This document shows positions 26,870-57,994 of a stretch of 64,000 nt of DNA, in pieces. Made by a program: the position numbers and the translations under genes. The first letter of the stretch is position 1. Each line of letters begins with the position of its first letter. The notes under the pieces were generated by a model that saw only the letters and a list, made by a program, of their open reading frames with translations, did no database searches and had not been told where the DNA came from. Source of the DNA: Paraspadella gotoi (Eukaryota; Animalia; Chaetognatha); contig CM119267.1 in NCBI GenBank assembly GCA_051294375.1, forward strand, positions 12,657,081-12,721,080, in the 5' to 3' direction.

Positions 26870-27352
26870 TGATGAAGATGCCTCCCCTTTTTCTTCATTT
26901 TATTTCATTGTTTCTCTTATTCATTGTACTATATTTCTTTTACTTTAGTGCTTTCGTGTATGCTTTTCTTTTTACTTTAGTTTAATAGTTTACCGGACCC
27001 CGTCTCTAAACGGCTTTTTACGGGCTATGAGCCCCGGCCTTTTCATATCATACACCTTGTCGCCACTTTTAGATACCACGAGCTTAGGGCCATGACCCAC
27101 AAGCACTGTCTGATGATAGACTCGTTGACTCTTGCAAGACGGTGCAACAGGTCTTGACACCCTCAACTTCGACGCTTCAGTCTTCATCACCATCATTACG
27201 GGTCGCGGAGACCGCGGCGTTCCCGGAGGACGTCGACTAGCCGCGCCACTTCCGGCGGAGCGAGGGGAGAGGCTAGGGGCCCACCCAGTACCGGCTGACG
27301 GTCGTCGCAAAGGAGACGTCTCAGGGATCAGGTTCGATACCTATCCGCGACA
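26870..27352 (+). repeat. BEL 5' LTR
   Basis: TGATGAAGATGCCTCCCC...CTATCCGCGACA; direct repeat of 50753-51253. Confidence 0.9.
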
Positions 27353-27363
27353 GTAAAAAGCCG
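27353..27363 (+). promoter_or_regulatory. Non-tRNA primer-binding site complementary to LTR nt 27011-27021 (candidate self-priming PBS)
   Basis: GTAAAAAGCCG directly follows the LTR's terminal CA. Its exact complement CGGCTTTTTAC is at 27011-27021 and 50897-50907. The same 11-mer follows the diverged LTR end at 14194-14204 (minus). Confidence 0.7.
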
Positions 27364-28630: not shown

Positions 28631-29010
28631 TGTTGGAGGGATTTTATGTGGATCGCCCAGCGGGCGAAGTGGCTCACGTCAAGGGGAGCTGGAACGCTAT
28701 CGGGATCTCCAGGGCGCCCACCAATCAGGGCTGCAAGCGGACGGCGCTATCGACAGATGCTAAAGTCCTTACTGTATGGATCTGAGAAGATACAGAGGCA
28801 CACAATATGAATGAGGGAGACGCGGACCAAGAACCGTATATTCTGACACATATCATTTATTAATATAGCACGATACTCTTTTCAATAAAAGGAACAGATT
28901 AATAATGATAAGTAATGAAATCAATAAAGATTATTTATAACTGAATGAGTTTAAAAATGTTCGTAGTTTCCATCGAGTCCATCGGCGTCCACGCGAATCC
29001 GTCTCCAACA
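28631..29010 (-). repeat. Gypsy 3' LTR
   Basis: Direct repeat of 40821-41234; TGTTGG/CCAACA termini. Confidence 0.9.
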
Positions 29011-29026
29011 TTCCTTCCCCTTTTCT
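29011..29026 (-). promoter_or_regulatory. Gypsy polypurine tract
   Basis: Minus strand AGAAAAGGGGAAGGAA lies immediately before the 3' LTR TG. Confidence 0.85.
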
Positions 29027-35300: not shown

Positions 35301-38300
35301 TAGGATAAGACATGATTTTGATACTTGAGATACAAATTATGATCTGAGTTGTTCAAAGCTTTTGATGTACATCTTTCCAGACCATCAACACCATCAGGGT
35401 AAGGTCTAGAGAGTGGTTGAGCAATTACTTACTGTCAATCTTTAACATAATGGCGGATAGTATCCCGTAAGCCCAAGAAACGTATTTACAGGCGTTCTAC
35501 GTCTTCAGGGGCTTTCACTATGTAACGGACTTTTTTCCACATTGGCAGGATCCTGGGGCTTATTCCGTTCTTCGAGAAAGGTTATACTGTCCAAGACATA
35601 CCACAGTTCCTGCCGCAAATTTGCACTTTGAAGGCTCTGAGCATTAAGACCCAGCACCTTCCAAGGCAGTCAGCACCTGATCCAAGTGTTTTGAGGTGAA
35701 TTCCTCCTGTTGTTGTCATGGCCAACCAGAATATCATCATGTAACTGAATGATATTTGTTTGTGGGGCGCAACCCGACGCAGCACGAGCTGCATGAGTGA
35801 GCTAAGGCCAGCTTGGGGAAATTTTTAGCAACCCATTGAGCAACTTGCATCTCAATGCCTTGATTCGGTTGAGAAAGCAAAAAATTTGCGGGTCGTCGCG
35901 GGCGTGAATAGGCATTCTGCCCAAAACCCTTTGGTTAAAGTCCAGAGCATGTGAAGATTTTTAGAGGCGTGTCGAGGCGCTGAATGAGTCTTTCAATCCT
36001 TGGGCAACGGTATAACACCTTATTGCATCTTTCGTTCAACTTTCTTCTAAAATCGGTAGAACAGAAATCTCCAACCACCAGACTTTCATCTTAATCAACA
36101 AGATAGGAGCTGAATACTGCGGCTGGTTTGAATGACTAATTCAAGGTCCAGTCAGCAATCATCTCGAATGCCTTGTTTGTTGATCACATCACGCATCTCT
36201 GTCTTGTACGGCGTTATGGAGGCAACAGCCAATGGGTGGAGACATCTCTATCTTTGGATTAGCTCGGTATATGTATATAGATTTGTCCTCCCATTAATCC
36301 CTGTTATGTTTAGAGGAATGCTTCATCTCGTCATTTTACTTTCAAAAGTTTGAAGTCTTCTTGTTTTAATAGGGGAGCGCCTCCTTAGCCATATTTTTGT
36401 ATCGATAGACACACTTTCTTGGCGTCCTGGTGGAATAATTTATCTATCCACTTCTTTGGTGAAGCTTTGGGTGAAGCTTCTGCTTTTCTTTAAAGAATCC
36501 TGAGGAGGATCCACATTCAACCCCTCTTCTAAGTCAGTCTTTCGATTCCAGATTGCTTCATCTTACGCCAATTTCATAGGCGGAGTCTCCACTATGAGTA
36601 GAGCAGAGCATATCACGTTTCAAAGAAAAATATGTCAAACGTCTCACTCATCCGTAAACTTCGGCACTAACCAGAGATATGTCCAGCCCCTCAGTTTTCA
36701 TACTGACCTGGACCCAATGATTGAGTTAGTCCATCGAATCTGCCCCCATCAACGTAGGCACATGCTCTACCAGCCCACACGTGGACCTCCATGAATTGAG
36801 AAATGGGTCCAGTGACAATTGTTTTTTGTCGCTCGGGGGCATGACACTGTCAAGCTTAAGTTCTTGGCATCGAGTGAATCTTGATAACGGCCGGGATAAC
36901 TGTCTCGCGGCACATTGGTTGACAGAAGCAGGTCCAGAAATACGATGAGATACCTCTATTAATGGATGACCGAGCTGGTTTCCGTAGAAACCCGTACGTC
37001 GTCCTTCAGAGGGCCACAAAGATCTGAAATTACAGAAAAAAGTCCCACCAAAGAATAACTGGCTGAACCTAGGCCCTACTACTTACAATTTCATTCAAGA
37101 TCACGTATTATCTTATTTCTAAACTTATACGTTAACTATGCCACTGTAATGTACACGCGTTCCATTGATTGGCTTTGCCCTTAGAGAAGGATATGTTTGC
37201 GGAAAGCTACGATCCTTATATGGGCGGGATTTGTCTCTTAAGAAATTTCCTCACTAGTCTGCAACTCTTTGTACAGCCGGATATCAGCCTAAGCTGTGGC
37301 GACCTTCTTACCATCTATTTTATCCAAAACTCAGCTTTCCATTTAGGTTTTTATATCTAGGTTCTCATCAATTTCGATCTCTGCTTGAAGCCCATAGCAA
37401 GGATCGCTTCCTTACGTCTTCGATGACAGTTTCGGAATGGAGGAGGATTCTTTTTCTGCCTTTTCTGGCCTTTCTCCGATTCACTCAGAAATTGCGCCTG
37501 AGGCCTCTTCTCTACTTTGGTTTTCACGCCTGTCTTCATCTGAAGTGTTGGCTGTACGCATATCTCTTCACGATTACGGGTCATATCACAGATCGTCTCT
37601 GACGATTTACTCGATTCCCTTTGCCGATAATCCTGTTTTTTCGGTCACTCGACGAATCATCACGCAGGCGACTGCCCCAGATTCGCGATCACACGTACCG
37701 GTATATAGCCGACGTTTCATTTCACGGCCATAATTGATCAACGGCTGCGACTGTCACGACTATCGTACGCTACTTGCTATCCTACTAACCAACTTCTTTC
37801 CCAAGATGATGACTTTCGTTTACGACCACGTCGGTCTGCTCTCGACTACTAGGAATTAGAAGAACAGCAGAGGAGTCGCGGCGCTAGGAGAATACGTCTC
37901 TACTACCACGACTCTCTATCCCTATCTTTCTCTTCTCCTACGATCTTGCTTGAGCGGTCCGAAGCCTAGGTTCTTCAAATTTTGTAGACAAACAGCGACG
38001 GCATACGCTCGGATTCGCAAGGCGGTCGTACCGACCTTGGCAAGCTTCCAGTAAAGGCTACAGGAATCTTTCAAAGGTTTCTGATACACCCAGAATCTAC
38101 CTTCCTTGAGTGATCTGAACACGCCAGGCGCTCACTTTTTCGCTGCCATTAATTGTGCGTGAATCCTTCATTCACAGCGACCTAAGTCAATAGCAATTCC
38201 CGGTAGGCTTAGCAGAGCTCTCCGAAAATCTGACAAGAAACAGCTCCCGGGGCTCTCGCATGCGCCAACCTACAATCCTTTCTACGTATTTGTTGACTTT

Positions 38301-38676
38301 TCTTAATAATCCTCTGCAGCCAATGATGCATGGACTCTCTGCCATCCCATTCAACTGTAGATTTCTTGGCTTGCAACGGTATGCCTCTTTGGAGGCATAT
38401 TTAATACAGGTAATCATTTTGGCTTTAATTGAGCATAAGTTCTGTCTGAGATCATCTTTAAAGACCTCACGAGCTGATCGTCCAGCTTTCAGCGGCAGCC
38501 ATTGGAAAAAGGCATCAATCATGTTATTCTGTCTTCAACGCGGCTGAATGTAGCCAACAGCAACAGCTTCTCAAAGAGCTCTATCATTCCATCGAAATCA
38601 TGCGTCTCAGAATCAAACTGTCCACAGGAAGGGACGAAGCTGCTTTCTCACGAATTCGGTAAATAGCCAGGCCCAT
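32360..38676 (-). pseudogene. pol: Gypsy gag-pol (gag, protease, RT, RNase H, integrase), frameshifted
   Basis: Gag fragment WLPLKAGRSAREVFK (38187-38522); RT YM(D)DIL-like at ~35740; RNase H TYDRDF at ~35150; integrase H-C/C region and VFDHVICDLVQL at 34184-34600. The 3' end is approximate. Confidence 0.85.
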
Positions 38677-38779
38677 ATTGAAGGGTTTACATAAAATTAA
38701 TAAGTAAGTGGCAAAAATCAAGGCAACAAGAAACAATCCAAAGAGCACAAAATTTAATGTGTTCTTGAAGGGAAGAGGT

Positions 38780-40450
38780 CACTCAAGCTCTGTCAAACCA
38801 GAGGATGAGTCATACGGGAACATCTGTAATATCGTCACTATGAAAGGAGTGAAGTGTCTTGGGCGGACCCTCAGTAATATGTTTAAGGCAACATCTCATG
38901 AAGGTTAGTTTGCATATTGGGCATTTAAAGCGACACTCTCGATACTTCTTGATGATATAATTATTAGTTATCCAACGAGTTTGGGGCTTGTCAAAGGAAA
39001 GCAGGGCCCAATTTTTGAAGCTAAGCGACTAAAGATATCAGAGTTATTTAGTGTAAAGGATGTTAGATTCCAACTCAGCCTCAGGATGATCAAAAAGAGA
39101 ACACTCGATTCTTGAGACACAAACCTGAGCCAAAGACACACTTTGTATTCAGAAACTTTTGAACGGCAAACAATTAGGTTTCCACTTGTCGAAGAAGAGT
39201 GTTCAGTCACCTGGCTGACACCGATAAATCAATTCGTAGACAGGATATTGGCCAGTTGAAAGTTAATGTCATCGAGATTGACCTCAAATGAAGTAATTTT
39301 GAAAGTTCAGGATAAGAGGGATTGTTTCTCGATAAAATCGATCAATTCTCCCATCTGGTTCGACGCAATTAGCATAATGATCAACCAATCGCACTCTTGA
39401 TTCCACATATCCAAGACCCATGGTATATAAAGTTTACCTTGGTCGTCAATGGTTCCTCTATGTGCGAGGGAATGTATTTAGTCATTTTCTCTAATATTTT
39501 CGTAAATCTAATTTTCGCATTTGAATCGCCTCGTGAAATTTGAGGTATGGTCCGGGGCTTGGTGCTTATTTCTCGATTGACCCCCAAAAAAAAAACCAGC
39601 AAGGGTTTGTAAATCTATCCAAGTCTCTCATCGCTTTCCTAAGAGCATCCAGCCAAATCGGCGTAGATAACTCATTGGGCTTTCTCTTCTTCCTCTTTGG
39701 GCTTTTCTTGCCGTTCTGCCTTTCGTTCTTGATCTTATCTTTTCTTCCCATTTTTATTACATGATCGAGGCAGTGACGACAGTCATCTCGTATTGCAACA
39801 GTGCATGAGGTACAAAATGGTAAAAATATTTGGGCAATGCCACGATTAGTGTTCCCAAAATAACATAAAAATAGCAAAGATTTTTGTGAGAGAGGTTGCA
39901 TATTAAAAACGTTCGCAAATTGAGTAATTTGTAGAAATAAAACGTTGTTTAAAAAAAAAATTTGGATTTTTTTTATAAAATGATTGTAGAAGATATAAAG
40001 TTTGATATGTTGATTAAAAACAGTTCATGTTAAATGACAGCCGGTGTCAGCACTATAGGTTCAGCACTTTCTTGCGTATTCGAAGAGAAAGCGACATTTA
40101 AAAGAACACCAATCGTCCATGGAACTTCCAGACGGATTGTAAAATCCGTTGTCCTGATATCCGCAGGGAGCCAGGCAAGCCTACCCCTTGTCTATGTCAC
40201 TTTGGAAGTGGGTGTGAAATCGATCGGCAAGGCATGTTCCACGAAACTTTGGAGTGAAAAATAATGATATGGCAATGATGGGGTTATTCGGAGCCACCGT
40301 GCTATATGTAGAGGCGGACTTGACAAAGAGCGTTGGGTCGGTGCCACGGAAGAGCATGTGCTGGCCAGCCAACTCTTCCGACTTCTTAAGACAGGGACGT
40401 CCTGTTGCGTCCTGTAGTTGCAAGTTATCCAGATAATACCACGCCGACAA
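38780..40450 (-). pseudogene. Gypsy extra ORF(s) upstream of gag (ORF0)
   Basis: 38780-39440 is homologous to the open 198-aa ORF at 51279-51875. Further fragments lie at 39566-39901 (CTSC...CRHC and a basic stretch) and 40181-40450. Confidence 0.6.
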
Positions 40451-40820: not shown

Positions 40821-41234
40821 AGTTGGAGGAGATCTTTATGTGGATCGCCGCGGTACCGGAGCGCCTTCCCGTTCTCACGCGAGGTGGTCACGTCAAGGGG
40901 GGAGCTGGGAACGCATCGCGATCTTCCAACGGCGCCCACAATCAGGGCTGCAATGCGGCCGTGTGTCGACCAGATGCTAAAGTCTTACTTGATGGATCTG
41001 AGAGAGTACAGAGGCACACAATATGAATGAGGGCAGACGGCGACCAAGAACGTATATTTCTGGACACATATCAATTTTTAATATCACGATACTCTTTTCA
41101 CTAAAAGGAAACAGATTAATAAAGCTAAGTAATTGACAATCAATAAAGATTATTTTATTAACTGAAATGAGTTATAAATGTTCGTAGTTTCCGATCGAGT
41201 CATCGGCGGTCACGCGAGATCACGTCTTCCAACA
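40821..41234 (-). repeat. Gypsy 5' LTR
   Basis: Direct repeat of 28631-29010; one terminal base differs (AGTTGG). Confidence 0.9.
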
Positions 41235-41238
41235 ATCG

Positions 41239-43281
41239 TTCGCGCAGAGTCACTTTTCAGCGCCAAACGCCCGTCGGCGTCGCATGTTTTCCTTAGGCGA
41301 ATGTCTTTCGGCCATTGAAACCTTACTCAACGCACAAATCAGGTGCTAGAAAGCAGAGAGAGGAGAAGAGAGACGTCGTGAGAAAGAACAGATGATTAGG
41401 ATTCTCAATGAACAGAATCAAGAAAGAGAACGAATGACACAGTATTTTCTTGAACAAGAAAGAGAGAGACAACGGATGGCGACGACTCTTAATCAGGTGG
41501 CCACGGCGGTAGAGAGGATCACCCTCAATTCGGCAGGACAACCGCCACCGCCGCCACCAGGGCCTCACCGCCGTACATCGGCGTTTGATGCACCCCCTAC
41601 AGAATCAATGCCTCTTAGACAAAGTGCGGAGCCGCCGCCGGCAATGTCCGACCCANNNNNNNNNNNNNNNNNNNNNNNNNGGGGGAAGGGTCTAGTGAAA
41701 GCAGGTACGGCTCAGGATTTTCTCCCCAACCTCCCGTTACACTGGCGACTCAAACCTATGGCTAATCCTCAGTTTGAAAGATATCTATTTTCCGCAATCG
41801 GCTGAATCTACGATTCGGATGTTGAAAAAGACTCCGCCCAGAGGAGGTCTTCATGAGTGCAGGATTCAAAAAAAAAGTGGGTGTTCGAGATCACATGCAA
41901 CAATGGGAATCGGTGATGTCACAACCTGCGCGTTACCGACCAAATGCGGCATCAAGAATTACGCTTTTGGTTTGGAGCGCTTGCAAGGTTAAGTTACAGA
42001 AATATTTTCACCGTCGTGATTATGCCGCTGCCGGTCTCGAAGCGATAGAAATGTTACGACGAGAGTGTCGGTTCGCCGGACGCTTCACCTTCTGAAATGC
42101 TGCGAGATTGTCTTGCTGGAGGTAAAGTGACGGAAGCTACTGATATTGACGAGACAATTACCCGGTTGGAGAACATTGTAGGGATAGCAGAGGCAAAAGG
42201 TCGTATTCGTGATTTGAACAGGGATACGGTAATTGCCGAGATCCTAGAAACAAAATTTCCTCAGTGGAAAGAAAAATTTGCAGAGGAGAACTCGCAATGT
42301 TTGTATCTGACCAACCGAAAAAGAACAATCTATGAATTTATTCAATTTTTAAAAATACACCTTTTAGCGGTTAAGTCCGTTTATCATAAAAAAAAGAAAA
42401 CGTCAACGGCCTCGGTAGCGGCGGTGATAGCATTGAATGCTCCCCCCGCGATGCAAAACGGTGGGGGCCCATCCGGAATTCCAGGTGGAGATCAATCTAA
42501 CGAATCATTTGACTCCTTGGACGATACCGACCCAACACAGCCACCCCCAAAACCGAGAAGACGAAGACGACGACGGAGCAAGGAACAAGTGCCGAGATCG
42601 GCCTTGCCGGCACCGACAGTGGATACTGGTTGCGGCTATGTCGCAGCACAGCAAGCAACACCGCAGGCGAATCCTATGTTGCCACAATCTGTTCAGTCGA
42701 CGCAGATTGTCGGGCGACCACAGACACAAGCCATTGCACCAACAATGAATCCAGGCGCCCCAATGTACGCATCAACGCCGGTCCGGCCTGCAACGCCGCA
42801 TTGTCACTTCTGCGGCCAAGCTCACATGGTTTGGGAATGTGCCGGATACTTAGCGCTTGGAATCCAGGCAAGAGCTGATCTTATTCTAGGCAGAAGGATT
42901 TGTTTTAAATGTTTGAATGGTAACCACTTAGCGAGTAAATGTAGGTTTGGAGTTTTGTGCTCTTTATGTAGAGGTAACCATCACCAGACCTTACATGGGA
43001 TGGCGCCAGTGCGTCGATCCAACCCCCCGATAACAAATGCACAATATCAGCCAACAACGACATATGTACAACCCCCATCTTATGCCACTCCCGCTTTCAC
43101 CCCACCCACTGTCCCTTCTTACTCCCCTGCGTCAATGCCCCAGCCCCTCTATCAGGCGCCAACGGCGGCCAACAACACATCGACGGTGAATAGCGGAATA
43201 CCGGATCTGAATCAGACAATTCCTATGAGTTTAGCGTCCGNNNNNNNNNNNNNNNNNNNNNNNNGTACGGCGTCAAGTTGA
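41239..43281 (+). CDS. gag: BEL gag, central and C-terminal parts (frameshifts and gaps)
   Basis: ORFs 41392-41805, 41853-42095 and 42097-43281. Triple zinc knuckle CHFCGQAHMVWEC, CFKCLNGNHLASKC, CSLCRGNHHQTLH is diagnostic of BEL/Pao. Confidence 0.88.
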
Positions 43282-43326
43282 CTGGCGGTTGCGTCCGCCC
43301 CAGGCGAGTCGACCTTTCGTCCAGTT

Positions 43327-45853
43327 GTGCCGGTTGTCGTAGAAACGGGCGGACGCAAGCGCACAACTTACGCCATGATAGACTCAGGATGTAATCGATG
43401 TGTTTTGAAACAAAATATCGCTGACGAATTAAAATTAGACGTTAATGCGCATTCCCATGAGAATCAGGACCCTCGATTGCGACCAGACGATGCATCGAGA
43501 AGTGACCGATTTCAATGTGGAACCACTCGATGGAACTTTCTCAATTTCTGTACGCCGCGCAATAGTGGGAAAACTGCTGACGTCGGAGGATGACCTCCCC
43601 CCTTCCAATGAAGATGTGGCCGGAAAACCACACCTAGAAGGGGTTTCCTTTCCCAACCTCCCAGACAAGGAGGTTGGACTGCTCCTCCCAGCAGGGTTCG
43701 CTTATACCTGGATAGGCGGCGAAGTTCGACGTGGCCCCGCAGATCAGCCAATTGCATTAATGACCGATTTTGGCTGGACGCTTGTTGGACCGCGGCCCGG
43801 TATGAGCAGCAATGATATACATTGTGCCCGCATAACAGCGGAATATGTCGAAGAAGATGAGAAGAAAATCCAAGAAGACATTCGACGTCTGTTTCATCGC
43901 GATTTCGTCCCGGCGCCTAGTGCTAAGAAGCTGGCGTCGGTTGAAGACGAATACGCGGTAAAACAACTTGAAGACACAATACGATTTGACGAGAAAGAAG
44001 GTCATTATTTTGTCGGTTTACCCTGGATGAGAGGTAGGGAAAAGGCGGCAGAAATATTGAATAGTAGAGATTCTGCCACAATGGCATTAAACCGGTTACA
44101 ATCTCTTATGCGAAAACTCAATAGATATCCCGCTGATAAAAAAAGGGTAAATGAAGAAATGAAAAAATTCGTCGAAGAAGGTCATGCTCGTAGAGTTGAC
44201 ACCGACGATGTCCCACCCGGTAAACCAATCTGGAACCTTCCCGTCCACGTTGTCGTACGACGAGACAAAGACAAAGTACGAATTTGCCACGACGCACGTG
44301 CCAACGTGAGAGGTAAATGTTTAAATGACGAATTACTCACTGGACCCGACTACATGACGAATATGCTGGGCGTTATGCTCCGATTTCGTCGTCATAGGGT
44401 GGCACTGGCCGCGGATATCCGCGGCTTCTTCCATCAAGTATTTGTCGATGAAAATGATATTCATTGCTTTCGTTATTGGTGGTTCGAGGATGATACTTGT
44501 ACCAAACCTGTTCTCTTCGAACTTAGAGTGCACATTTTTGGCGCAAAGAGTTCACCGTTGGTCGCAAATTACACCCTCAAGACNNNNNNNNNNACGTTGG
44601 AAGGGAAGCTTCCAATGGAAGTCGTCGAAGCCATTATCCGACAGTTCTATGTCGATGATTTCCTCGGTTCTACCCCAAATGAGGAAACTGCGCGTGAGTT
44701 GAAGAAGGGCCTCGTCGAAGCCCTCCGCCTTGGCGGCTTTGAGTTGACAAAATGGAAATGTTCAGTTCCCGATGTCCTGGAAGATGAACCGGACAAATCA
44801 GCAGATCTAAAAAAGACCTTTACAGATGGGAATGACGACGACACCAAAGATGAGCGCCCAAGAGATAAAGTATTGGGTGTTGCTTTCTCATTTTTTGATG
44901 ATTATTTTTCCCCTTGTGTTAACCAGGATAAAGTCATGAAACGTTGTATCACTAAAAGACAAATTCTATCCCTAACAGCCAGCTTGTACGACCCATTGGG
45001 AATCGTCTCACCATTTACATTGAAAGGACGTAATTACTTTCAACGCGCGAATGAAGCGACAACGGACTGGGATTCACCTCTTCCGGATGACCTCGTACAG
45101 GACTTCAACACCTGGCGAATACAGATGCCAGAACTGGAGTCCATCAAGCTGCCGCGATGGATCGCCACAAGAGAAACAACAGAAGATCCCGCGGAACTGC
45201 ATGTATTTTCTGATGCCAGCCATGATGGCTATGGTGTAGTAGTGTATCGCAGAACTGTACCACAAAATCAAGGGAAATCTCATGTTGCATTTATTATGTC
45301 TAGGTCCCGAGTAACGCCCGTTGATTCCTCCAAAGCATCTCATCACAATTCAATCCCGAGACTGGAGTTGACAGCGGCATGCCTCGGTGCGGAAATCCGA
45401 CATACGGTGGTTGAAGAGATGACCAACGATCATTACGAAAAGGTAGTTATGTGGACTGATTCAGAGACTGTTTTGAAACAAATTTTTGATCGTAAATCTA
45501 AATTTGCAGCTTTTTTCAAAAACCGCTTGTCTCGAATCAGGGAATTAACCGATGTGGCAGAATGGCGCTACGTTGCCACAGATGACAACCCTGCAGATGA
45601 CTGTAGCCGCGGATTACCGTCTGGCGATCCAAAATGGCGACGCTTCCACCAAGGCCCCGAATTTTTGTGGCGCCCGGAAGAAGAGTGGCCCGAACAAAAA
45701 TATCTCCAAAGCCATTCCCCGCGGATATCCTCGCGATGGAATATAAAGATGCCGAATCGTCCAAAGGAAAACGTACAAAAGATTCGGACATTGAACACTG
45801 GTCGCTGCGAATCGCGCGGCAGTGCTCAAACTCCCACAAAAAACTTCGTCTGA
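43327..45853 (+). CDS. pol: BEL pol: aspartic protease, reverse transcriptase, RNase H
   Basis: YAMIDSGC protease motif (frameshift near 43450); KVRICHDA, FGAKSSP, FYVDDF (RT); HVFSDAS, SIPRLEL, WTDS, NPAD (Pao RNase H). Confidence 0.95.
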
Positions 45854-47331
45854 TCGCGACGATAAAATCCGTGATCATGAATTGGATAGAGTGGAGGAAA
45901 GCATTGCGCCATGACGTAGATGCTAAACCAAAAAAGATGAAATGGTTAAACCTAAACGACTTAAAAAACGCTGAACTCATCCAATGTCGAGCGTTGCAAA
46001 AGCGCTATTTTTCGGATGAGTACCGCCAACTTTGGGATAAAGAAGTTCGATCCCCAGATGCGCGGGCAGAGCTGACGCAGACGAGATCCCCGCTGCGTCA
46101 ACTCAACCCCTTCCTAGATTCATCAGACGTTATTCGAATAGGCGGTCGAATCGGAAAAGCGGACTTGGACTACGAGACCCGACATCCGATCGCGCTACCA
46201 AAAAACGATCAAATTGTCCGCGATTATATTCGGCATGTACATGAAAAGGAAGCGCACGCAGGCGTAGAGCACACCCTCGCAAATATCCGACGCCGATTTC
46301 ATATACCTTCAGCGCGTCAGGTTGTGAGATCCGTCATAAAGCGTTGTGTTAGTTGTCAGAAAAATTTTCGCGCGCCAGCCACCCAAAAGATGAGTGATCT
46401 TCCCGAGGATCGACTCACTATCGGAGTTCCTTTTGGAGTGACAGGCGTGGACATTTTTGGCCCCTTCAATGTCGTCCACGGAGGTAGAGGCAGCACCAAA
46501 CGATGGGTGGCCTTATATACGTGTTTTAAATCCAGAGCTGTCCATCTTGAGGTTTTGCATGACCTATCCTCTTCCTCATTTATTAATTCAATAATCCGGT
46601 TCAATTCCCGCCGTCCCGGAACGAAAAAATTTTATAGCGACAATGGGACGAACTTACGTGGAGCGGATACGGAATTGAAAGCGGCAGTAGGAAGATGGAG
46701 GGAAGAACAGGTTCATAAGAAAATGGTTGAATATGGGGTCGAATGGGTTTTTGGTCCTCCCCACGCCCCGCAATGGGGCGGAGTATGGGAGAGACTCGTA
46801 CAATCTACAAAAAAACATTTAACCGCAATTCTGAAAAAAGATAAATTACAACTTGAAGTTTTGACCACAGCTTTAGCTTCCGTTGAAAGCATACTTAACC
46901 GCCGTCCGTTAACACGAATTGGCGAAGACCCACGTGACATGGAAGCTCTGACGCCAGCCACAATCCTCTACCCGAGTGTCTATGCCCCTTCGAGAGCAAT
47001 AATCGTGCCCCCAGAATCCGTCGATGGCGATGCCCTAAGGAGCACGTGGAAACAGGCAAGACGTTTGAGCGAAGAGTTTTGGGATCGATGGAAACATGAA
47101 TATGTGGTTACCCTTCAACAGCGCCAAAAATGGCAAACTACACAGGAGAACTTAAAAGAAAATCAACTGGTTTTAATGGTAGATGAATTAAAATCACGCG
47201 ACCAATGGAGATTGGCGCAGATCATTGATGCCGGCGACGGCACGCACGTGAGGCGTGTGCGTGTGCGTACAGCGGACGACAAAATTTTTGAACGCGATCG
47301 TAATAAACTTGTGCCACTTGAATGTGATTAA
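45634..47331 (+). CDS. pol: BEL integrase (continues pol after a frameshift near 45720)
   Basis: HEKEAHAG...CVSC zinc finger; GVDIFGP, SDNGTN, GGVWERLV DDE core; FWDRWKHEY C-terminal motif. Confidence 0.95.
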   Translation: MATLPPRPRIFVAPGRRVARTKISPKPFPADILAMEYKDAESSKGKRTKDSDIEHWSLRIARQCSNSHKKLRLIATIKSVIMNWIEWRKALRHDVDAKPKKMKWLNLNDLKNAELIQCRALQKRYFSDEYRQLWDKEVRSPDARAELTQTRSPLRQLNPFLDSSDVIRIGGRIGKADLDYETRHPIALPKNDQIVRDYIRHVHEKEAHAGVEHTLANIRRRFHIPSARQVVRSVIKRCVSCQKNFRAPATQKMSDLPEDRLTIGVPFGVTGVDIFGPFNVVHGGRGSTKRWVALYTCFKSRAVHLEVLHDLSSSSFINSIIRFNSRRPGTKKFYSDNGTNLRGADTELKAAVGRWREEQVHKKMVEYGVEWVFGPPHAPQWGGVWERLVQSTKKHLTAILKKDKLQLEVLTTALASVESILNRRPLTRIGEDPRDMEALTPATILYPSVYAPSRAIIVPPESVDGDALRSTWKQARRLSEEFWDRWKHEYVVTLQQRQKWQTTQENLKENQLVLMVDELKSRDQWRLAQIIDAGDGTHVRRVRVRTADDKIFERDRNKLVPLECD

Positions 47332-47641
47332 CCATATATCTGGACTTTACTATAGAACTATTATTTGTACATTTCGTAAAGATATATATACCCCCTTTAC
47401 CTTTTTTTAATAACTCGAACTCGAATTATGAAAACTGGTCTCCAGCTTATCATTATTTTTATTTTTATCTATTTATTTTTTTTTTTTTTTCTTTTTTTTT
47501 TTTCTCTTCTCGTTGTTGTAAACTCACTGCAATGAAATAAATATTTGCTTGCTTTAATGCCAATCTCTGGATTTCCAAAGAAATAGTTATTAAATTTTTT
47601 TTTATGTTTACTTAATCCAGAGTTTCTTTGCTGATAACAAA

Positions 47642-49736
47642 ATGGCTCATTTTCCAAACTCTCATGCCTTTCAATTGAATATGCCGGGAACTGGAACTAC
47701 AGTAGTCACGTTCCATCCGATGGCTATCGGTCCGGCATCCGCATGGATAGCCTATGGTAGGCGACGCAATGCATTATCCGTCTACACGATTCTTGAGTCG
47801 ATGAGTTCCGACTCTATGATACGTGAACTTCGCTCTTGGGCAGAGGCCGGAGATTTGACCGCCCTGTTCCCCCCCCCTGGAACGGCCAATATCATCTGGG
47901 ACCTTCACACAGCAACAAGACGACCCGTTAGTATCGTCGCTCGGGCCGAATGGCCAAACGGAAGACCGATTAACCCCGGACCGGACTCAGTTGTAACCAC
48001 ATTACAAAGTGGCATTTATGTCAACCTAGAGGAAGCCCGACATCGTCTTTCCTCTATTCTCAATCAAAGAGACAGGCCCGCACGCCGATCCCTGAGTGTT
48101 GAGCGACCCGCTCCACCCAGATCTGCATCATTACGTCCCCCTCCACGTACATCAACCCTTCCTCCTCCCCCTCTGATGCCGCCGGTTCAACCGGCGTTGA
48201 ATCCAGAGGGAAGGGTGGAGGCAACTCCAGAAAACGTCGAAACCAAATCTAAGCAGAAGCGCACTGGCAGACGACTTGAGAGAAGCCAATTAAGGATGCA
48301 AAAATTCTTGCTAAAGGTGAAGCCAACGGAAACCGAGTCGGCCCCAGTCCCAACTAAAAGTTATCCTTCATCGACGAATCCTCAACCAGCACCCACGGAC
48401 CAAAACCCAAAAGATCCCTTCAATTTACATCTTATTGCAACCCCCACACTCGAGTCTGGATGTTCCGACTCTTCTGACGCTCTTGTTTACCACCCCATTT
48501 CAACCAAAAGCTGGTCCGACCAAGTCGAGGAGGTAGACCGAGAGAACCGAAGAAGGAAAAGAGATACAGAGATCGAGCACGATCTCTCGACCGGTGTCTT
48601 GGGTCACATACCAATGCACACGCCGGAAGCTACGTCGACGCCAATACTTGTCCCGACTACATCCACGGAATCTGGAGATCAGAGGTTTTTTCGTAACATG
48701 ATGAATGATAATAAGAAGAATAAATTGGTTAAAAATTAACTATTAATTATAAAATGATTTATTTTGTCTTTCATTTCTTTACCTTTTCCTCTTGATGTAA
48801 TCTTTTTTTATTTTTACTCTTTACATCAGGCGTGTTACCTTCAGAACCCCCACCAACGAAACGGAGCCCGTCATCTCCGTATCCCTTCGCGAAGTTCCAG
48901 AGGGATGGCTGGAAAACACCATCAACGAGAGGCGAAAGCGCGACTTTACATCGGAATCCGACTCTGGAGCGGAAAACGTCACTCCCGTCCAATCGCAACC
49001 GCCCCAGCCAGCTGCCTCCAAAGAACCCATTCAATGGGGCTTGCCACCAGCAGAGAGAAAGGAAGCCCTGGACAAATACAACAAGGAACAGGAGAGCCGC
49101 TTCAAGTCGGGCAGAATGACAAAGAAAGATAAAGAAAGGTGGCAAAACTACAAAATATGGGACAAAGAAAATGAAGCCACCACCTTCAAACGTCCACAGC
49201 CCCTTCCCCCCCGTAAGAAGAAAATGTCCCTTCCTTCACACCGCGGACGTCCGCAGTCTACTCCCTCTACTATTGATAACGACGGATTCCGTTGTCGAGA
49301 TGTAAGAGAGGAGTATAGAGCTACCGCCATTAAATTTACTGAATCTTCGACCCTTCAAGAGGCGGAACCCCAATTCGACGAGTCTGCGACCGCGGTTAGT
49401 GAGGATACGGTCACCCCTCCCCCCAACGTCGAGGTTGTCCCGACGGAAACCCCCGATGTCCTTTTTCCCTCTACTGTCTCGTCCCTCAATTCCTCGTTCA
49501 CCACTTCAGCTTCAACGACGAATTTTGCAGAGACCGCGACGGAGGCAACGATTCAGTCCTCCGCCAATGATTCTTTCAGTTCCGCTTGTTCAACATGCCT
49601 TCATCCGCCATACGAGATGCCCAGATTGGAGAGGATTGCGTCGCTCCCCCTCATGCACATTACTCCGGAATGCGAACGCGCTTTACTCGGCGAGGATGAG
49701 GACGAGCGAATGGACGACGACAGCGACGATCTATAA
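47642..49736 (+). CDS. BEL post-integrase accessory gene, predicted two exons (47642-48684, 48830-49736; 649 aa), unknown function
   Basis: A 365-aa ORF and a frame open from 48831 to 49736 are separated by an AT-rich segment that starts AG|GTTTTT and ends in a polypyrimidine tract plus CAG. Splicing joins them in frame. Confidence 0.65.
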
Positions 49737-50734
49737 GATAGCGTCACAGTCTAGTGAACTGTAACAGCGTGACGCTCCTTCAGACCCGGAAAATGTTAAA
49801 GGACTTGATTTTTGAAAATGGACTTGTTCTTATGCGTGAATTTTCTCGACGACTTTACAAGCTACGGAGTTCCGCTATGGTCGGAACTCCGACCTTCCGG
49901 ACTTTCCAGGAATACCGGCGTCGCTTGTAAAGCAGGTATTATTCTTGGTTTCTGTAATAAGTTAATAAGATATAATTTGGTGACATTTTATTCAAAATGT
50001 AAAATAACGTCTATTGAATTCATGGTAATTTCGTGGCATTACGTTTCGTCATAAATTTTTTCCCTTTTTTTCTTTCCTTCCTTTAGTTTAAATTTTAGTT
50101 ACATTTCACTTTCGAATTTTGTTTAAATTTGCCATTTACGTAACGGAATTCCGACGTTTGTTTTTTAAATTTAGTCACGTTTCATAATTTGGTAAAAAAA
50201 AAAAAAAAAAAAATTCTTTTTTTTATTACGGATTTCCGTTAAAACTGTTTAATTTTTTGGCGTTTACGTAACGGTTGTCCGACGTTTTATTGTTACAAGA
50301 ATTAAGTATATGTTACACTGATAAAACGTTGCTTTGTAGAATTAAGTTTAGTTTCAAAGACGTACATTATTTCGTAGGATTTTCATTCACACATGTTCCT
50401 TTTTTTTTCTCTCTCTTTGATCATGTAACAAAGTAAGAATTGAAATTGAAATCATGATTATTAATTGTTACGATAGAGAAACATAGGTTTTTTTTTTTTT
50501 TTTTTTACGTCATGTCATTACGTTTAAAGACGGGCTAAAAAGAAAATTATAATTAGACTTATTTCATTTTTCTTTTCATTCTCTTTTCTCTCTCCTTTTT
50601 TTTTTTACTTTTTTTCTTTCCCCTCTCCTGCTTTATTCTCGTCATATCTTCTTCTCCTTTTCTTTTCTATTTCACCTTTACCTTTCTCTACTCACCTTCC
50701 TCTGATAGAGGGCAAATATGGCCGTTTTCCCTCC

Positions 50735-50752
50735 GGGAAATCGGAGTGGGGG
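50735..50752 (+). promoter_or_regulatory. BEL polypurine tract
   Basis: GGGAAATCGGAGTGGGGG immediately before the 3' LTR TG. Confidence 0.8.
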
Positions 50753-51253
50753 TGATGAGAGATGCCTCCCCTTTTTCTCATTTTATTCATTGTTCTCTTA
50801 TTTCATTGTACTATGATTCTCTTTTACTTTAGTGCTTTCGTGTATGCCTTTCTTTTTTACTTTTAGGTTACATAGTTTACCGGACCCGTCTCTAAACGGC
50901 TTTTTACGGGCTATGAGCCCCGGCCTTTCATATCATACACCTTGTCGCCAACTTTTAGATACCACGACTTAGGGCCATGAGCCCACAAGACTGTCTGATG
51001 ATAGACTCGTGACTCTTGCAAGACGGTGCGAACAGGCGTCTTGACACCCTCAACTTCGACGCTTCAGTTTTCATCACCATCATTACGGGGTCGCGGAGAC
51101 CGCGGCGTTCCCGGAGCGGACGTCGACTTAGCCGCGCCCATCTCCGGCGGAGACGAGGGGAGAAGGCTAGGGGCCCACCCAGTACCGGCCTGACGGGTCG
51201 TCGACAAAGGAGACGTCTCAGGGGAGTCAGGTTCGGATCCCTATTCCGCGACA
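50753..51253 (+). repeat. BEL 3' LTR
   Basis: TGATGAGAGATGCCTCCCC...CTATTCCGCGACA; direct repeat of 26870-27352. Confidence 0.9.
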
Positions 51254-51278
51254 AGTACAACTTTATAATCAGTGGGTC

Positions 51279-51875
51279 TTGGATAGTGGAATTAAATGCG
51301 ATTGGGCAGATCATTACGCTAAATTGCGTCAACCAGATGGAGAATTGATCGACTTTATCGAGAAACACATTCCTCTTTATCCTGACTTCAAAATTACTTC
51401 ATTTGTGGTCAATCTTGAAGACATAACCTTTAGCTGCAACATTCCTGTCTACGAATTGGACTATCGTGTCAGCCAGGTGACTGAACAATTCCTTCGACAA
51501 GTGGAAACTTATTGTTGCCCTAAAAGTTTCATACAAAGTGTGTCTTGCTCAGCCTGTGTCTCTAGATCGAGTGTTTCTCTCTTTGATCACCCTGAAGCAG
51601 ATTTTGAATCTAACACCTTCACTCTTAACAATTCCGAGATCTTCAAGTCCTTTAGCTCAAAATTGGGCCCTGCCTTCTTCGATCACCCCAAAACTCGTCT
51701 GGAAATTAACAATTATATTATAAGAAGTACCGAATCGCTTTATGCCCAATATGCAAACTATCTTCATGAGATGTTGCCATACATAATCACTCAGGGTCCG
51801 CCCAAGACACTTTCACTCCTTTCATACGACATTACAGATTTCCCGATGACTCATCCTCTGTTTGACAGAGCTTGA
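51279..51875 (+). CDS. Gypsy ORF0 C-terminal part, unknown function
   Basis: Open 198-aa globular-looking frame ending ~100 bp before the gag ATG; conserved in the minus copy. Confidence 0.65.
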   Translation: MDSGIKCDWADHYAKLRQPDGELIDFIEKHIPLYPDFKITSFVVNLEDITFSCNIPVYELDYRVSQVTEQFLRQVETYCCPKSFIQSVSCSACVSRSSVSLFDHPEADFESNTFTLNNSEIFKSFSSKLGPAFFDHPKTRLEINNYIIRSTESLYAQYANYLHEMLPYIITQGPPKTLSLLSYDITDFPMTHPLFDRA

Positions 51876-51972
51876 GTGATTTGTTCCCTTCAAAATATAC
51901 CAATTCGCCTTTGTTTCTGTTCGCTTCGATTGTTTGTTACCACATACCTCTCACCTTTTACATAACCTCAAC

Positions 51973-53416
51973 ATGGCCACCGCTAGTACCATTCGTGAGA
52001 AAGCAGCTTCGTCCCTTCCTGTGGACAAGTTTGATTCCGAGAACGATGATTTCGAGGAATGGATTGAGCTCTTTGAGAAAGCTGTTGCTTTGGCTACGTC
52101 AGCCTCTACTGAAGTTAGAAAGCATGAATTATGCCTTCATTGGCTGCCTTTGAAGTTGGATGATCCAGCTCGCGAAGTATTTAAAATGATTCCTGATAGA
52201 ACTTATGATCAGGTTAAAACCAAAAATGATTACCTTATTAAACGATCCTCAAGAGGCATATCGTTGGCAAGCTAAGAAATCTACAGTCGAATGGGATGGC
52301 AAAGAGTCCATGCATCATTTGGCTGCAAGGATTATTAAGAAAGTCAATAAATACGAAAAAGACTTGGGTGTAGATGCGAGATCCCGGGAGCTGTTTTTCA
52401 GATTCCGGAGAGCTCTGCCTAAGCCATACCGGGATGCCATTGATTTAGGATGTAATGAAGATTCGCGCACAATCAATGCAGCAAAAAGTATTGCCCTGCG
52501 TGTCCAAATTACTCAAGAAGAGGATTCTGATAACTCAAAATCTGAAAAATCTGTAGCCTTTACTGGAGCCACCATGTCAGACGACCGCCTTGCCGAAGTT
52601 GAGCGTGCCGTCGCTGGTTTGTCTACAAAATTTGAGAATTTAGCTTCGGACCTCAAACAAGATCGTAGGAAAAGAGAAGATAGAGATAGAGCTCGTGGTA
52701 GCAGAGATTATTCTCCAAGATCCCGCGACTCATCTGTTTCTTCCAACTCCAGTAGTCGTGACAACCGACGTGGTCGTGATAATCGTCGATCTTGGGGACG
52801 AAGTGGCTATAGAGATAGTAGTAGTTACAATAGCCGCGACAGTCGCAGCCGTGATAATTACGACCGCGACAGGAATCGCCGCTATAGCCGATTTGGCGAT
52901 CGCGATCGCAATAGGCCTCGCGATAGCCGCCGTAGTGACCGACAGGATTATCGTAAAGGAAATCGCGATATTCGCAACAACGATCGCGATAGACGTAATC
53001 GTGACAGATACCGGGTAGCCAATACTTCGGATGAAGACAGTGGTGAAAACCAAAGTGAAGAAGAAGCTGTCAGGAAATTTCTGAGTGACCGGAGGAAAGC
53101 CAAAAAGGCAGCAAAGAAGAACCCTCCTCCATCCGAAACGTCATCAGAAAAACTAAGGAGCGATCCTGCTATGGGTCAAGCAGAGGTCGAAGTTGATGAG
53201 ACCCTAGACGTAAGACCTAAGTGGAAAGCAGAGTTCATGATAAGAGTCGATGGGAAAAAAGTCGCCACCTTAGGCGATACTGGGTGTACTAAAAGTTGCA
53301 TTAGTGAAGAATTCTTAAGAGACAATCCTGCTATTAAAGATCGCAGCTTTCGCCCCTTTTCCTCTAAGGGCAAAGCCATTAATGGAACTCGTGTTCTTAC
53401 AGTTGGTATAGTTAAT
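51973..53416 (+). CDS. gag: Gypsy gag plus protease N-terminal half (one frameshift near 52220)
   Basis: MATASTIREK...KFDSENDDFEEWIELFE...LHWLPLKLDDPAREVF; Arg/Ser/Asp-rich C-terminus; LGDTGCTKSCIS protease active site. Confidence 0.88.
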
Positions 53417-54977
53417 TAGATTCCTCCATAAATTTTTAAATTTGTCAGAACGTTTTTCTCTTTTTTTCCATATTTTTTTGACACGCTAAACGTTTCTCTG
53501 ATTACGCAAAATTTCATGAAAAAAATAAAAAAATAATAGTACCAATAGTTAGTGTTATGTCTCGAATAGATGGAAAAAAAACCTCGTTTAAAAATTCGAT
53601 CGGGAAGTGGGGTAACTAAGGCTTACCAATGGCATCCTCCACGCCAATCGTTCTCTCAAATAATTTTTTTTATTTAATACATTTGAAAGGGAAAAAAAGA
53701 AAATTCAGAATGCAGGTTGCAGAAAGGGTACAGATAATATGGACATACTGACATGATAATCATGACCTTTTATGTCTTGTGAAAGGGGGGCAGTAAAGAA
53801 ACCTAAAAAATTCGATCATTAAGTCAGTCAATGAACCCTTTCCAATGGGCTATTCCGCGAAATTTTTTTCTTAATTTAAACGGATGATAAGTAATAAAAT
53901 TAAATTCCTTGTATAAAGGTTGTTATATTTAAAAGAAAATTATCAATACAAATAAACACAATGATGTCTTGCTTTGTCAAATATGTCACCAGCTATGTAA
54001 TTTTTTAAAATTTTATTATGATAAACAAGCAGCGTGTCAAGCTTTTTGTTTGCAGTTGAAGATAATGGAAAATGACAATTTTTTTTTCACAGACAAGAAG
54101 GTAGATGTCCAGACTGTTTATATCAATCTGAAAATATTTTTGTATTTATCATTTTTCATATTTAAAAAAACATTTTATCCAGCTACTTCATAAATTTTTG
54201 CTTGTTTTTTTACTTTAACTAAAAAATACAAGCAAATTTATAGAGTAGAGCAATTTAATGGTAATCAAAATGTAATTTAGTCTTTCCTTTTTCAAATTAC
54301 AAAAGAAGCAAAAAAATTTCACATGTCTTCATTGAAATTTTTAATGCAAAAAACTGTTATACTTTTAACTCTGATTTAAATAAAAGCTGTGTAAAGATTT
54401 ATGGATAAAATTTAATAAAACTATTTCAGAGAGGTGTCCCATGATTAGGGCTTTAATTTAATACCTCACCCACTTTCCTACCTCTTTTCTTTCCAAAGTT
54501 ATTCAAGAAAATAACTTTTTTTACCGTGAGAGAACTAAGAATTTGAACTACGCAGTACAAATCTTTGTTAAATAAAAATTTCGGCAAAGCGGGAGTATCT
54601 CAATTTATCCTATTGGTACAATACCTAAATTTTAAAATAAAACTTAAAGAAAAATTTTCCGTCCTCTTGAGACATGTCACTTTCAGGTTTACCTATCGTC
54701 TTACACATTTATGGATTATGCTGGAAGAAATCAGCAAAACGTTTTCTCTTTTTTTTAAATAGTTTGTACTAGCGCGTCAGAAATCTAAGAAGAAACTCGA
54801 AAATTTTATTCTGACAAATTTTGCCTTTCAAGGCTGATGTTTATGACTATATCTCGGAAACCATTGTAGGAATTTAAAAACGGTTTTTTGCAAGTGAACA
54901 TTGATATCATCCTCCAGGGATCGGCATAAAAATATATAAAAAAATAAACTAATATTGGCTGTCGAGTGAGGTATCTA
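53417..54977. mobile_element. Non-autonomous TIR element, TAG...CTA ends, 7-bp TSD
   Basis: TAGATTCCTC...GAGGTATCTA; TSD AGTTAAT at 53410-53416 and 54978-54984 (also readable as 5-bp GTTAA). The protease sequence resumes after it. Confidence 0.8.
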
Positions 54978-55032
54978 AGTTAATGTTAAAGTTTAGAATA
55001 GACAATACTTACCTTAGAATGAACTGTAGAGT

Positions 55033-55754
55033 TAGGAGTTTACGTTGTTCTTAGAAATCGAGGAAGACTTTTTCAATGGAGATTTTCGTTAAAATCTGAC
55101 TACCAAATAATGTCAACGCTCCTGGGAAAAATTCAGGTAAAAAATAGATGTAAAACACTCGATTCCGATCCTGTTGCATCTGAAGGGCTCGCATTTTTTT
55201 TCTCTTGACAAATAACCATCATTTTGACATCAAACTATCAGATTCAAATGACTGGTCTGCTCGGGAAAATATTTCGACGCAATTTTTATATATAAAATAA
55301 AGGGATTTCTCAACTTCAATACAATGTCAACGCATTTAACATATGTTGTAATTTTACAATAAACTTCAAAATTCAGGAATCCGATAGCATATGTCTGAAG
55401 GGCTCTCAAAATTTTTCTTTACATTTTATATGGTTATTTTGATATGAATACGATCATGGGAAAGTGAATTAGTCCATTTTGGTGAAATTTTTATTTAAAG
55501 TAAAAGTAAAAGAGGAGCTAACGATCGGAATTCTAAGAGTTTTCAACCGGGAGTCAGATTCGGGAAAAAATCTTCTATGGCGAAAATCTTCCAAAGAAGG
55601 GGTGGATTTTCCGAAGATTTTGGTTAATATTTTCTATATTTATGGTAGGATTTTTTTGAAACTTAATATTAACAATATTGCCATCATTCTACCTTGGCCG
55701 GTATAAGAATATATTAAAAAAACCTCTGGCTTTGTTCGTCAGAGCTTAGTCCTA
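55033..55754. mobile_element. Non-autonomous element, TAGGA...TCCTA ends, 7-bp TSD
   Basis: TSD GTAGAGT at 55026-55032 and 55755-55761; removal restores protease ...MNCRVVKGLVQPIILG. Confidence 0.8.
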
Positions 55755-57994
55755 GTAGAGTAGTTAAAGGCCTAGTCCAGCCAATTATCTTGGCTGGACT
55801 TTTTCTGTAAATATTCAGCATCATTATGCCCTTCTGAAGGACGACTCAGGTTTCTCGGAAACCAGTCAGTCTCATTAATAGAGGATTCCCATCGCATTAC
55901 TGGATGCTATTATCAAGTGCCGGAAGACACGGTTATCCCGGCCTTATCCAAGATTCATCTTGATGCCGAGCTCAAGCTCGACAGTGACCATGCTCCACGA
56001 GCAACAAAAACAATTGTCACTGACCCATTTATAAATCATGGAGGTCATGTGTGGGCTTGTAGAGCATGTGCGTATGTTGATGAGGGCAGATTCATGACTG
56101 AACTCATCAATTGTAGTCCAGTTAGCATGAAATTGGAGGCTGGACATATCCTTGGATACGCCGAGTTTACGGATGATGAGACGTTTGATAAACTTTTCTG
56201 TGGAAACTGATATGCTTTGCTCTTACTCAAGTGGAGATTCCGCTTACGAATCTGGCGAAGAAGAGCAAACTGGAATCGAAAGTGACTTAGAAGAGGTTGA
56301 AGTGGATCCTCCTCAGGATTCTGTTAAAGGAAAAGCAGAAGCTTCACCTAAAGCCTCACCCAAGGTGGAAGACAATATTTCACCAGGCGCTAAAAAGTTG
56401 TCTATAGAATATAAGGGCATGGCTAAGGAGGCTCTCCCCTACAAAGACAAACTTAAACACCTCCTTGAAGTTAAGCATGAGAAGGCATTCTCTAAACATA
56501 ATAGGGATTATGGAAGGACAAACTTAATACAATACCGAGCCAATCTCAAAGATAGAGATGCTCCACCTATTGCCGTCGCCCCATACCGCACAAGACCAGA
56601 GATGCGTGATGTGATTAACAAGCAAGCATTCGAGATGATAGCTGATGGACTTATTAGTCATTCAACCAGCCCATATTCAGCTCCTATTTTGCTTGTCAGA
56701 ATGAAATCTGGTGGATGGAGATTCCTCACCGATTTTAGAAGAGTGAACGAAAGATGCAATAAGGTTGTCTACCCACTACCAAGGATTGAAGATTTCAATT
56801 CAGCGCCTTGACAACCCCAAAATCTTCACTTCTCTGGATCTAACAAAAGGTTTTTGGCAAATCCCAATTCATCCCGACGACCGCAAATTTTTTGCTTTCT
56901 CAACTGAATCGATGCATTTGGAGTACCAAGTTGCCCCAATGGGTGCCAAAAATTCCCCAAGCTGCCTTAGCTCACTCATGCAGCTTGTACTGCGTGGGTT
57001 GCCCCCACAACATATCATCAGCTACATGGATGATATTTTGGTTGCAGACAACAATATGGAGGATCACCTCAAACACCTGGATCAGGTGCTGACTGCCTTG
57101 GAAGGTGCTGGGCTTAAGCTCAACCCGTCAAAGTGCAAATTTGCGCAGGAGACTGTGGTATGTCTTGGACATAAACTCTCTCGAGACGGAATTGCCCCAG
57201 ATCCTGCCAATGTGGAAAAAATCCGTTCATGGAAGCCCCTGAAAAACGTCAAACGCCTTAAAACATTCCTTGGCCTAACGGGTTACTACCGCCATTACGT
57301 TAAGGATTACAGCAAAATTGCTCAACCACTTTCAGATCTCACCCATGATGGTGTTGAATGGTCTTGGAAAGATATACATCAAAAAGCATTTGAAGAACTC
57401 AGACATATTTTGATCTCAGATCAAATCATGTCTTATCCCAATTTTGAAAAACCCTTTATTGTTAAAGTGATGCCTCACTTCTGGCTGTTGGCTACGTTCT
57501 AACCCAGAAGATAAACGGCAAGGAAAAGTCATTTCTTATGGTTCAAAGAAATTGTCAAAGCCTCAACAAAAATGGTCCACCTATGATCGCGAATTTTTTG
57601 CCCTTTTATGCGCAATTCGCGCTAATTCCCATTACTTGAGACATGCGCCATTTATTGCTATAACAGACCATAGGCCCTTACTTTCTTGGAAGAAAGTAGA
57701 TCCCAAGAAGGACGCCACTGGAAGAAGGACCAGATGGGCTATTGAGCTTGATCAATACGAATTCGAGCTTTGACATAAACAAGGCAAAATACACTCTGAC
57801 GCAGATGCGATGAGTAGGAGAGGTGAAGAAGATGAAGACCCTTGCGAAGAAGACGATTATGCCCTAGGTGAATATGACAACGAGTGGGCTCTTTAGGCAT
57901 TGATGCGATAGATGAATCCAATGCCGTCACCTTAATGCCGAAAGCTCTCGCCTAAAGCAAAAGCAAGAAGCCGATTCTATCATATCTGAAGTTA
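55755..57994 (+). pseudogene. pol: Gypsy pol: protease C-terminus, spacer, RT, RNase H (frameshifted)
   Basis: SPYSAPILLV, WRFLTDFRRVN, SLDLTKGFWQI, PMGAKNSP, SYMDDIL, FLGLTGYYR, WSTYDREFFA, ITDHRPL. Confidence 0.92.

Follow-up and report, generated by a model that had tools for sequence, protein, structure and literature searches.

The window, which is the whole 64,000-nucleotide stretch of DNA that was analysed, is eukaryotic and transposon-rich, contains scaffold gaps and has an overall GC content of 40%, with coding islands of 45-55% GC in an AT-rich background. No host gene was recognised within the window, and Rfam and tRNA scans over its whole length returned nothing. On the + strand, a BEL block runs from about 41350 to 47331 between two head-to-head Ty3/gypsy-like copies; beyond it, on the same strand, are a spacer and then two long open frames, the predicted exons 1 and 2 of a single gene, which are separated by an intron-like block. 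The Ty3/gypsy-like copies themselves (34751-39445 on the - strand and 51249-57946 on the + strand) are around 80% identical, with RVT_1 and RT_RNaseH_2 domains at 56747-57499. Also present in the window is a tandem duplication of about 3.7 kb (4799-8540 and 8576-12218), with 91% identity and a gap of 25 N between its two copies.

Three public runs were compared with the window at 90% and 80% likeness: run X1, as contigs, and runs X2 and X3, which come from other organisms in the same study. Run X1, the only one among public runs to contain the locus, is most likely DNA, with a depth of about 9; a search for RNA runs over 47300-50000 gave none.

The BEL/Pao gag-pol block and its limits

The block begins on the + strand with several open frames (41350-43281), called gag-like from their position only, which are interrupted by N gaps at 41656-41680 and 43241-43264 and have no Pfam match. 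Pol follows, also on the + strand, in two frames. The first of these (43439-45853) carries a reverse transcriptase (Pfam PF00078, E 2.4e-7) and a Pao-type Peptidase_A17 (PF05380, E 1.8e-42), and the second (45607-47331) carries an integrase zinc finger and DUF5641 (PF17921, PF09337, PF18701). The BEL/Pao domain set is thus present in pol by Pfam: reverse transcriptase, Peptidase_A17, an integrase with an H2C2 finger (Integrase_H2C2, zf-H2C2) and a C-terminal DUF5641. The two frames overlap at 45607-45853 in different reading frames, a frame break in the assembly, and inside this overlap the X1 contig and the window disagree by one letter in length, so that the break could reflect either the assembly or allelic variation. 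The DUF5641 profile was matched through its last position, at residue 571 of the 574 in the second frame, and the closest relatives of pol in the protein collection, pol proteins of 1320-1444 amino acids with 37-46% identity, carry the same four domains. Therefore, pol ends naturally at 47331.

No LTR pair was found in the window; direct-repeat searches at several settings and BLAST with 7-base words gave only low complexity or A/T runs, and a local alignment of the 5' against the 3' flank scored 34, compared to a shuffle maximum of 31, through A/T runs only. When applied as a positive control to two distant BEL loci, L002 and L006, this repeat tool detected LTRs that start 23 and around 80 nucleotides after pol. 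Since the 3' LTR lies within 23-80 nucleotides of pol in those loci, and here a complete pol is followed not by an LTR but by a long frame on the same strand, an extra internal gene fits the arrangement. The 3' flank of the gene (49737-49960, + strand, 44.6% GC) is of normal composition and is followed by AT-rich DNA; it contains no LTR start and no clear polypurine tract or other convincing purine run, and there is no TGG-type PBS in 41150-41350, the LTR ends being unplaced in both searches. The preliminary description had put the gene between the integrase and the PPT. That placement was not confirmed, as no PPT, LTR or PBS was identified; the gene is on the same strand as a complete pol and 310 nucleotides after it.

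An LTR-like segment of around 505 nucleotides (50745-51257) precedes the right-hand Ty3/gypsy-like copy and recurs at 26870-27355 (92%); the left-hand copy is without one. This segment was considered as the 3' LTR of the BEL element and rejected: it has its own ends, it abuts the right-hand gypsy-like element and its other copy is the one at 26870-27355. A repeat at 40822-41343 ends just before gag, the place expected for the end of a 5' LTR, but has no partner downstream of either pol or the gene. This repeat recurs at 28632-29017, 26000-26101 and 12293-12366, has AATAAA motifs near 41110-41150, and in run X1 its depth is 2- to 6-fold above that of the element body.

The two open frames and the block between them

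Between pol and the first frame is an AT-/T-rich spacer of 310 nucleotides (47332-47641, + strand, 25% GC) with no N gap in it; it contains a candidate 3' splice site (T-run ... CAG) that ends at 47620, 21 nucleotides before the ATG. Predicted exon 1 (47642-48684, + strand) starts with the ATG at 47642 and comprises 347 codons and 2 bases; without splicing, its frame would run on past 48684 to a TAA at 48737-48739. Predicted exon 2 (48830-49736, + strand) comprises 1 base, 301 codons and the stop, a TAA at 49734-49736. Both exons are predicted from the open frames and from a codon model, and they have a GC content of 52.2% and 53.3%, respectively.

The openness of the two frames is far beyond chance. 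In dinucleotide-preserving shuffles (2000 per frame), 0/2000 were stop-free for each frame and none matched the observed open length; the mean number of in-frame stops in the shuffles was 11.7 for the first frame and 9.2 for the second, compared to zero in the actual sequence. Under a codon model trained on the gag-pol of the element, the proposed frame comes out ahead in each part (log-likelihood ratios +36/+28 and +35/+34), and both alternative offsets were negative. Codon-position periodicity is only weak in exon 1, and the region of exon 2 has a low density of stops in two of its three frames (2 stops in the +1 frame). In the exon 2 frame the first methionine is found only at residue 96, and yet the frame is open right up to the acceptor; the chance of such an open stretch before the first methionine is around 0.05, by arithmetic from the stop density of the shuffles. 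Therefore, entry into this frame by splicing is favoured over independent initiation.

The block between the frames (48685-48829, + strand), a predicted intron of 145 nucleotides and 20.7% GC, begins with GT and ends with ...TTTACATCAG. Its excision would join AG (48683-84) to G (48830) to give an AGG codon and a single reading frame of 347 + 1 + 301 = 649 codons. Among the GT/AG pairs near the block, GT at 48685 and AG at 48829 are the only pair that both keeps the frame and coincides with the switch in base composition. Upstream of the acceptor the nearest AG is at 48717, which leaves the 110 nucleotides ahead of the acceptor free of AG, and the 3' half is 79% pyrimidine. The block thus has the features of a spliceosomal intron, namely GT...AG borders, a pyrimidine tract, an AG-free zone and a frame that is kept on excision. 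It looks like a spliceosomal intron, and from these features it is predicted to be spliced out. The donor, GAG|GTTTTT, matches the general U1 consensus only at -2, -1, +1, +2 and +6, although the preferences of this host may differ. Two long sense frames split by a 145-nucleotide AT-rich block, their in-frame fusion into 649 amino acids (phase 2, AG+G) and a weak donor had all been described beforehand from the letters; the coordinates and frames hold, the fused frame continues through the AGG codon to the TAA, and we agree that GTTTTT is weak.

The block was also considered as an insertion with a 5-base flanking repeat, ATCAG, and this was rejected, as the excision of such an insertion would not keep the long frame. 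It is not a repeat within the window. The predicted RNA fold of the intron is unremarkable (z -2.1), as is that of the 3' flank (z -1.5). The two candidate 3' splice sites, at 47593-47620 in the spacer and at 48799-48829 in the block, resemble each other (T-run, TTTAC, CAG; 18/20 bases), a likeness that is not significant taken alone (E 0.06-0.14).

The predicted protein and its relatives

The predicted product of exon 1 starts with around 140 less biased residues, which are followed by Pro/Ser/Thr-rich and basic tracts (RRRKR), and that of exon 2 is mostly disordered, with the basic runs RRKR and RKKK and an acidic C-terminus. Pro, Ser and Thr make up around 30% of the residues, and there are only 5 cysteines. 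Neither a signal peptide nor a membrane helix is present: Kyte-Doolittle means over 19 residues peak at 0.98 in the first frame and 0.65 in the second, compared to a usual threshold for a membrane helix of around 1.6. These results bear out the preliminary description in its reading of Pro/Ser/Thr-rich, basic and acidic tracts after an N-terminus of around 140 residues and in its failure to see a signal peptide or transmembrane helix; with no membrane segments and no match to a glycoprotein family, its impression that the protein does not look like an envelope was likewise sound.

Single-sequence structure models were of low confidence overall for both parts. Residues 1-160, modelled with AlphaFold, gave a mean pLDDT of 41. 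The only confidently modelled part is a helical hairpin formed by residues 73-118 of exon 2 (49047-49184), where the pLDDT of the block is 77-91. Three basic runs that resemble nuclear localisation signals, together with the acidic tail and this hairpin, are what suggests that the protein may act in the nucleus.

Relatives of the protein were sought in several collections. Exon 1 had none by word search or in the Atlas, metagenome contigs or viral contigs, and exon 2 had none by word search or in the Atlas or PDB; exon 1 resembles neither exon 2 nor gag. No Pfam family was found for the product at E values up to 10, except for a meaningless match to DUF4744 (E 3.2), and no PDB sequence matched either exon with an E value better than 3.9. 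A HMMER search with exon 1 over 1.84 billion representatives gave one match only, to P0003, a fibronectin-III-like repeat protein (E 4.4e-5); this match is weak, covering only residues 76-125 and with an E value summed over three repeats. A fibronectin type III-like fold is thus an unconfirmed lead, Pfam giving it no support and the model of this region being of low confidence (pLDDT 41).

Queries with the integrase found nothing in metagenome or viral contigs. Six distant BEL loci (L001-L006) lie in records filed as bacterial, and the gene has no relative in any of them. These records, L002 and L006 (Wolbachia endosymbiont chromosome) and L001 and L003-L005 (MAGs), include BEL/Pao elements that are complete and bounded by LTRs, as well as fragments of BEL integrase, all most simply explained as host DNA in those assemblies.

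Origin of the gene and comparison with known systems

In run X1, exon 1, the block and exon 2 form one contiguous stretch, which shows no joint and retains the block. Its depth is equal, at 8-11, over gag, pol and both exons, and the contig that contains exon 2 extends at equal depth to 49895; the 3' flank of the gene leads on into AT-rich DNA of low depth. The X1 contigs end at 47383 and restart at 47595, with 47443-47519 skipped as a repeat; the linkage of pol to the gene therefore comes from the present assembly only. Neither a spliced or intron-less form of the gene nor a paralogue of it was found in X1, X2 or X3 at 90% and 80% likeness, and in X2 and X3 only pieces of 37-38 bases matched. 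At 80% likeness, 4 short paralogous contigs of X1 match the integrase region, whereas no such contig matches the gene. Among the differences listed between X1 and the window, the gene has 1, which is synonymous, and 13 of the 17 in pol (43440-46161) and 1 of the 5 in gag are synonymous, 19 further differences being present. The pattern in pol is compatible with a family under purifying selection and is uninformative on the gene. At around 47570-47637 one X1 contig matches the AT-rich bases before the ATG of the gene and then diverges, again showing the start context ATGGCTCA; this contig could stem from a diverged paralogue, or the match could be due to chance in low-complexity DNA.

We tentatively favour an element-borne origin, in which the two frames are a spliced, non-envelope accessory gene of the BEL/Pao copy, 310 bases behind pol. 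The complete pol, the common strand, the distance of 310 nucleotides, the equal depth and the orphan, disordered nature of the protein all count for its membership of the element; the missing LTRs, the AT-rich spacer, intron and 3' flank, which are like the background, the lack of gene paralogues in X1 and a linkage seen in one assembly count against it. The two-exon gene would then encode a 649-residue, largely disordered, non-envelope protein as the element's own accessory product. This protein would be expressed from spliced RNA, with the unspliced RNA serving as genome and as gag-pol message, and the gene would be transcribed either with the element, via the candidate acceptor ending at 47620, or from a promoter of its own in the spacer. 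Alternatively, and in our judgement somewhat unlikely, what stands beside an LTR-less BEL gag-pol remnant is a two-exon, lineage-specific gene of the host, or one that belongs to a different mobile element; the intron would then be a normal host intron and the adjacency coincidental. No enclosing LTRs were found, AT-/T-rich DNA like that of the window background lies on both sides of the gene and in its intron, and the X1 paralogous contigs cover the integrase region and not the gene. Furthermore, an internal intron is a common feature of host genes and seldom found in the ORF3s of retroelements. However, such an origin would require pol to have been cut exactly after its natural stop, leaving the host gene on the same strand, only 310 nucleotides away and at an X1 depth equal to that of gag-pol, and it would be unusual for a host gene to have only one weak, repeat-boosted match among 1.84 billion representatives.

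It is distinctly unlikely that there is no splicing here, so that the first frame yields only a readthrough product of 365 residues or both frames are the decaying remains of a once-continuous ORF3 or env. The second frame has zero stops in 301 codons where 9.2 would be expected, and is open for 95 codons before its first methionine, up to the AG; GT and AG lie exactly at the switch in composition and keep the frame, a pyrimidine tract and an AG-free zone are present, and the codon model favours the frame. What speaks for the absence of splicing is the weak GTTTTT donor, the DNA contig of X1, which keeps the block and in which no spliced form was seen, the low stop density of the exon 2 region in two of three frames, the weak periodicity of exon 1 and the lack of relatives, and hence of any sign of selection. 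Very improbable, finally, is an assembly chimera in which the scaffold, within the long T-runs at 47443-47519, passes wrongly from a contig with the BEL pol to a gene unrelated to it. Such a misjoin would coincide with the break in the X1 contigs between 47383 and 47595 and with the stretch skipped as a repeat; the element also has three N gaps and several indel differences from X1, and one X1 contig shares the bases before 47637 and then differs. Against this, there is no N gap in 47332-47641, the depth is equal on both sides, and pol and the gene share a strand at a plausible spacing.

The element-borne reading can be compared with several known systems. Unspliced RNA is packaged by retroviruses and by several LTR retrotransposons, in which some of the RNA is spliced to express accessory genes, and complex retroviruses have multi-exon accessory genes (tat, rev), the introns of which persist in the packaged genome; tat and rev differ from the present gene in belonging to vertebrate retroviruses and in having overlapping frames. 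Intron-containing LTR retrotransposons of plants are said to have been the subject of work by Steinbauerova et al. in 2008. In Ogre and EVADE of plants a sense-strand intron is kept in the genomic copies, the unspliced RNA is the template for replication and splicing yields a subgenomic message (PMC12786077). Unlike the element described here, these are Ty3/gypsy and Ty1/copia elements of plants, and their introns serve the expression of gag and pol and not that of an accessory gene (PMC12786077).

A further close parallel is with CERV of Cer1, a Ty3/gypsy element of Caenorhabditis elegans. CERV is not an envelope protein, and the frame in the env position makes up its C-terminal half; it is made from a 5-exon mRNA, only via splicing, and is needed for the export of the unspliced genomic RNA, which stays the genome (PMC10309623). 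Its structured domains, a helix hairpin among them, are described as connected by flexible linkers, and it carries a putative nuclear localisation signal (PMC10309623). The present gene is like it in being a predicted spliced, non-envelope gene in the env position with a helical hairpin and basic runs that resemble nuclear localisation signals, and unlike it in that the element here is BEL/Pao, and in that the first exons of CERV are shared with gag whereas the gene here starts at an ATG of its own and has its predicted intron within the frame in the env position (PMC10309623). No match to CERV was obtained in the HMMER search of exon 1 over the 1.84 billion representatives or in the word searches of both exons, libraries that may not include CERV. 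If the gene belongs to the element, its protein might act in the nucleus on the element RNA, as CERV does for Cer1. With retroviruses, Cer1 CERV, Ogre and EVADE as precedents, the earlier view that a retained sense intron is in itself remarkable was overstated.

Like the envelope genes of BEL/Pao elements, the gene is downstream of pol and on the same strand; unlike them, its product lacks both a signal peptide and a membrane helix, contains just 5 cysteines and matches neither a glycoprotein family nor a solved structure. Cer7 and Tas are reportedly BEL/Pao elements with envelope genes, as set out by Malik et al. in 2000. The third genes known from BEL/Pao elements are glycoproteins of viral type, F-like in Roo and glycoprotein B-like or Chuviridae-like in mosquito BEL elements (PMC13524379). 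Non-envelope third genes are found in the LTR retrotransposons of bdelloid rotifers, where family-specific ORF3s follow pol and are said to be expressed from spliced messages; many of these have no assignable function, and the product of a retroelement ORF3 is usually an orphan and disordered (PMC5408684). The bdelloid ORF3s differ from the present gene in belonging to the Juno, Vesta, TelKA and Mag clades and in that several are enzymes (GDSL, DEDDy), and the word 'intron' is absent from the main text of that account (PMC5408684). A literature search for a BEL/Pao element with a non-envelope ORF3 that contains an intron came back empty, a weak negative since the slash makes 'BEL/Pao' poorly searchable.

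The case is built on one copy in a draft assembly, and if the gene is that of a neighbouring host locus the finding is an ordinary one. If it is element-borne and spliced, complex expression control, with regulated splicing, packaged RNA that keeps an intron and a dedicated accessory protein that is not an envelope, would extend to BEL/Pao; such control has so far been documented in retroviruses, in Cer1 of the Ty3/gypsy group and in a few plant elements. The protein would then also be a new orphan, and a candidate for functions in RNA export or on chromatin. We consider it unlikely that a BEL/Pao lineage has gone as far as to acquire a Rev/CERV-like nuclear accessory gene with its own internal intron, in which case the element must control both the splicing and the export of its intron-containing genomic RNA; if this were true, it would be the first such gene in BEL/Pao and an independent origin of 'complex retrovirus' expression among invertebrate retrotransposons.
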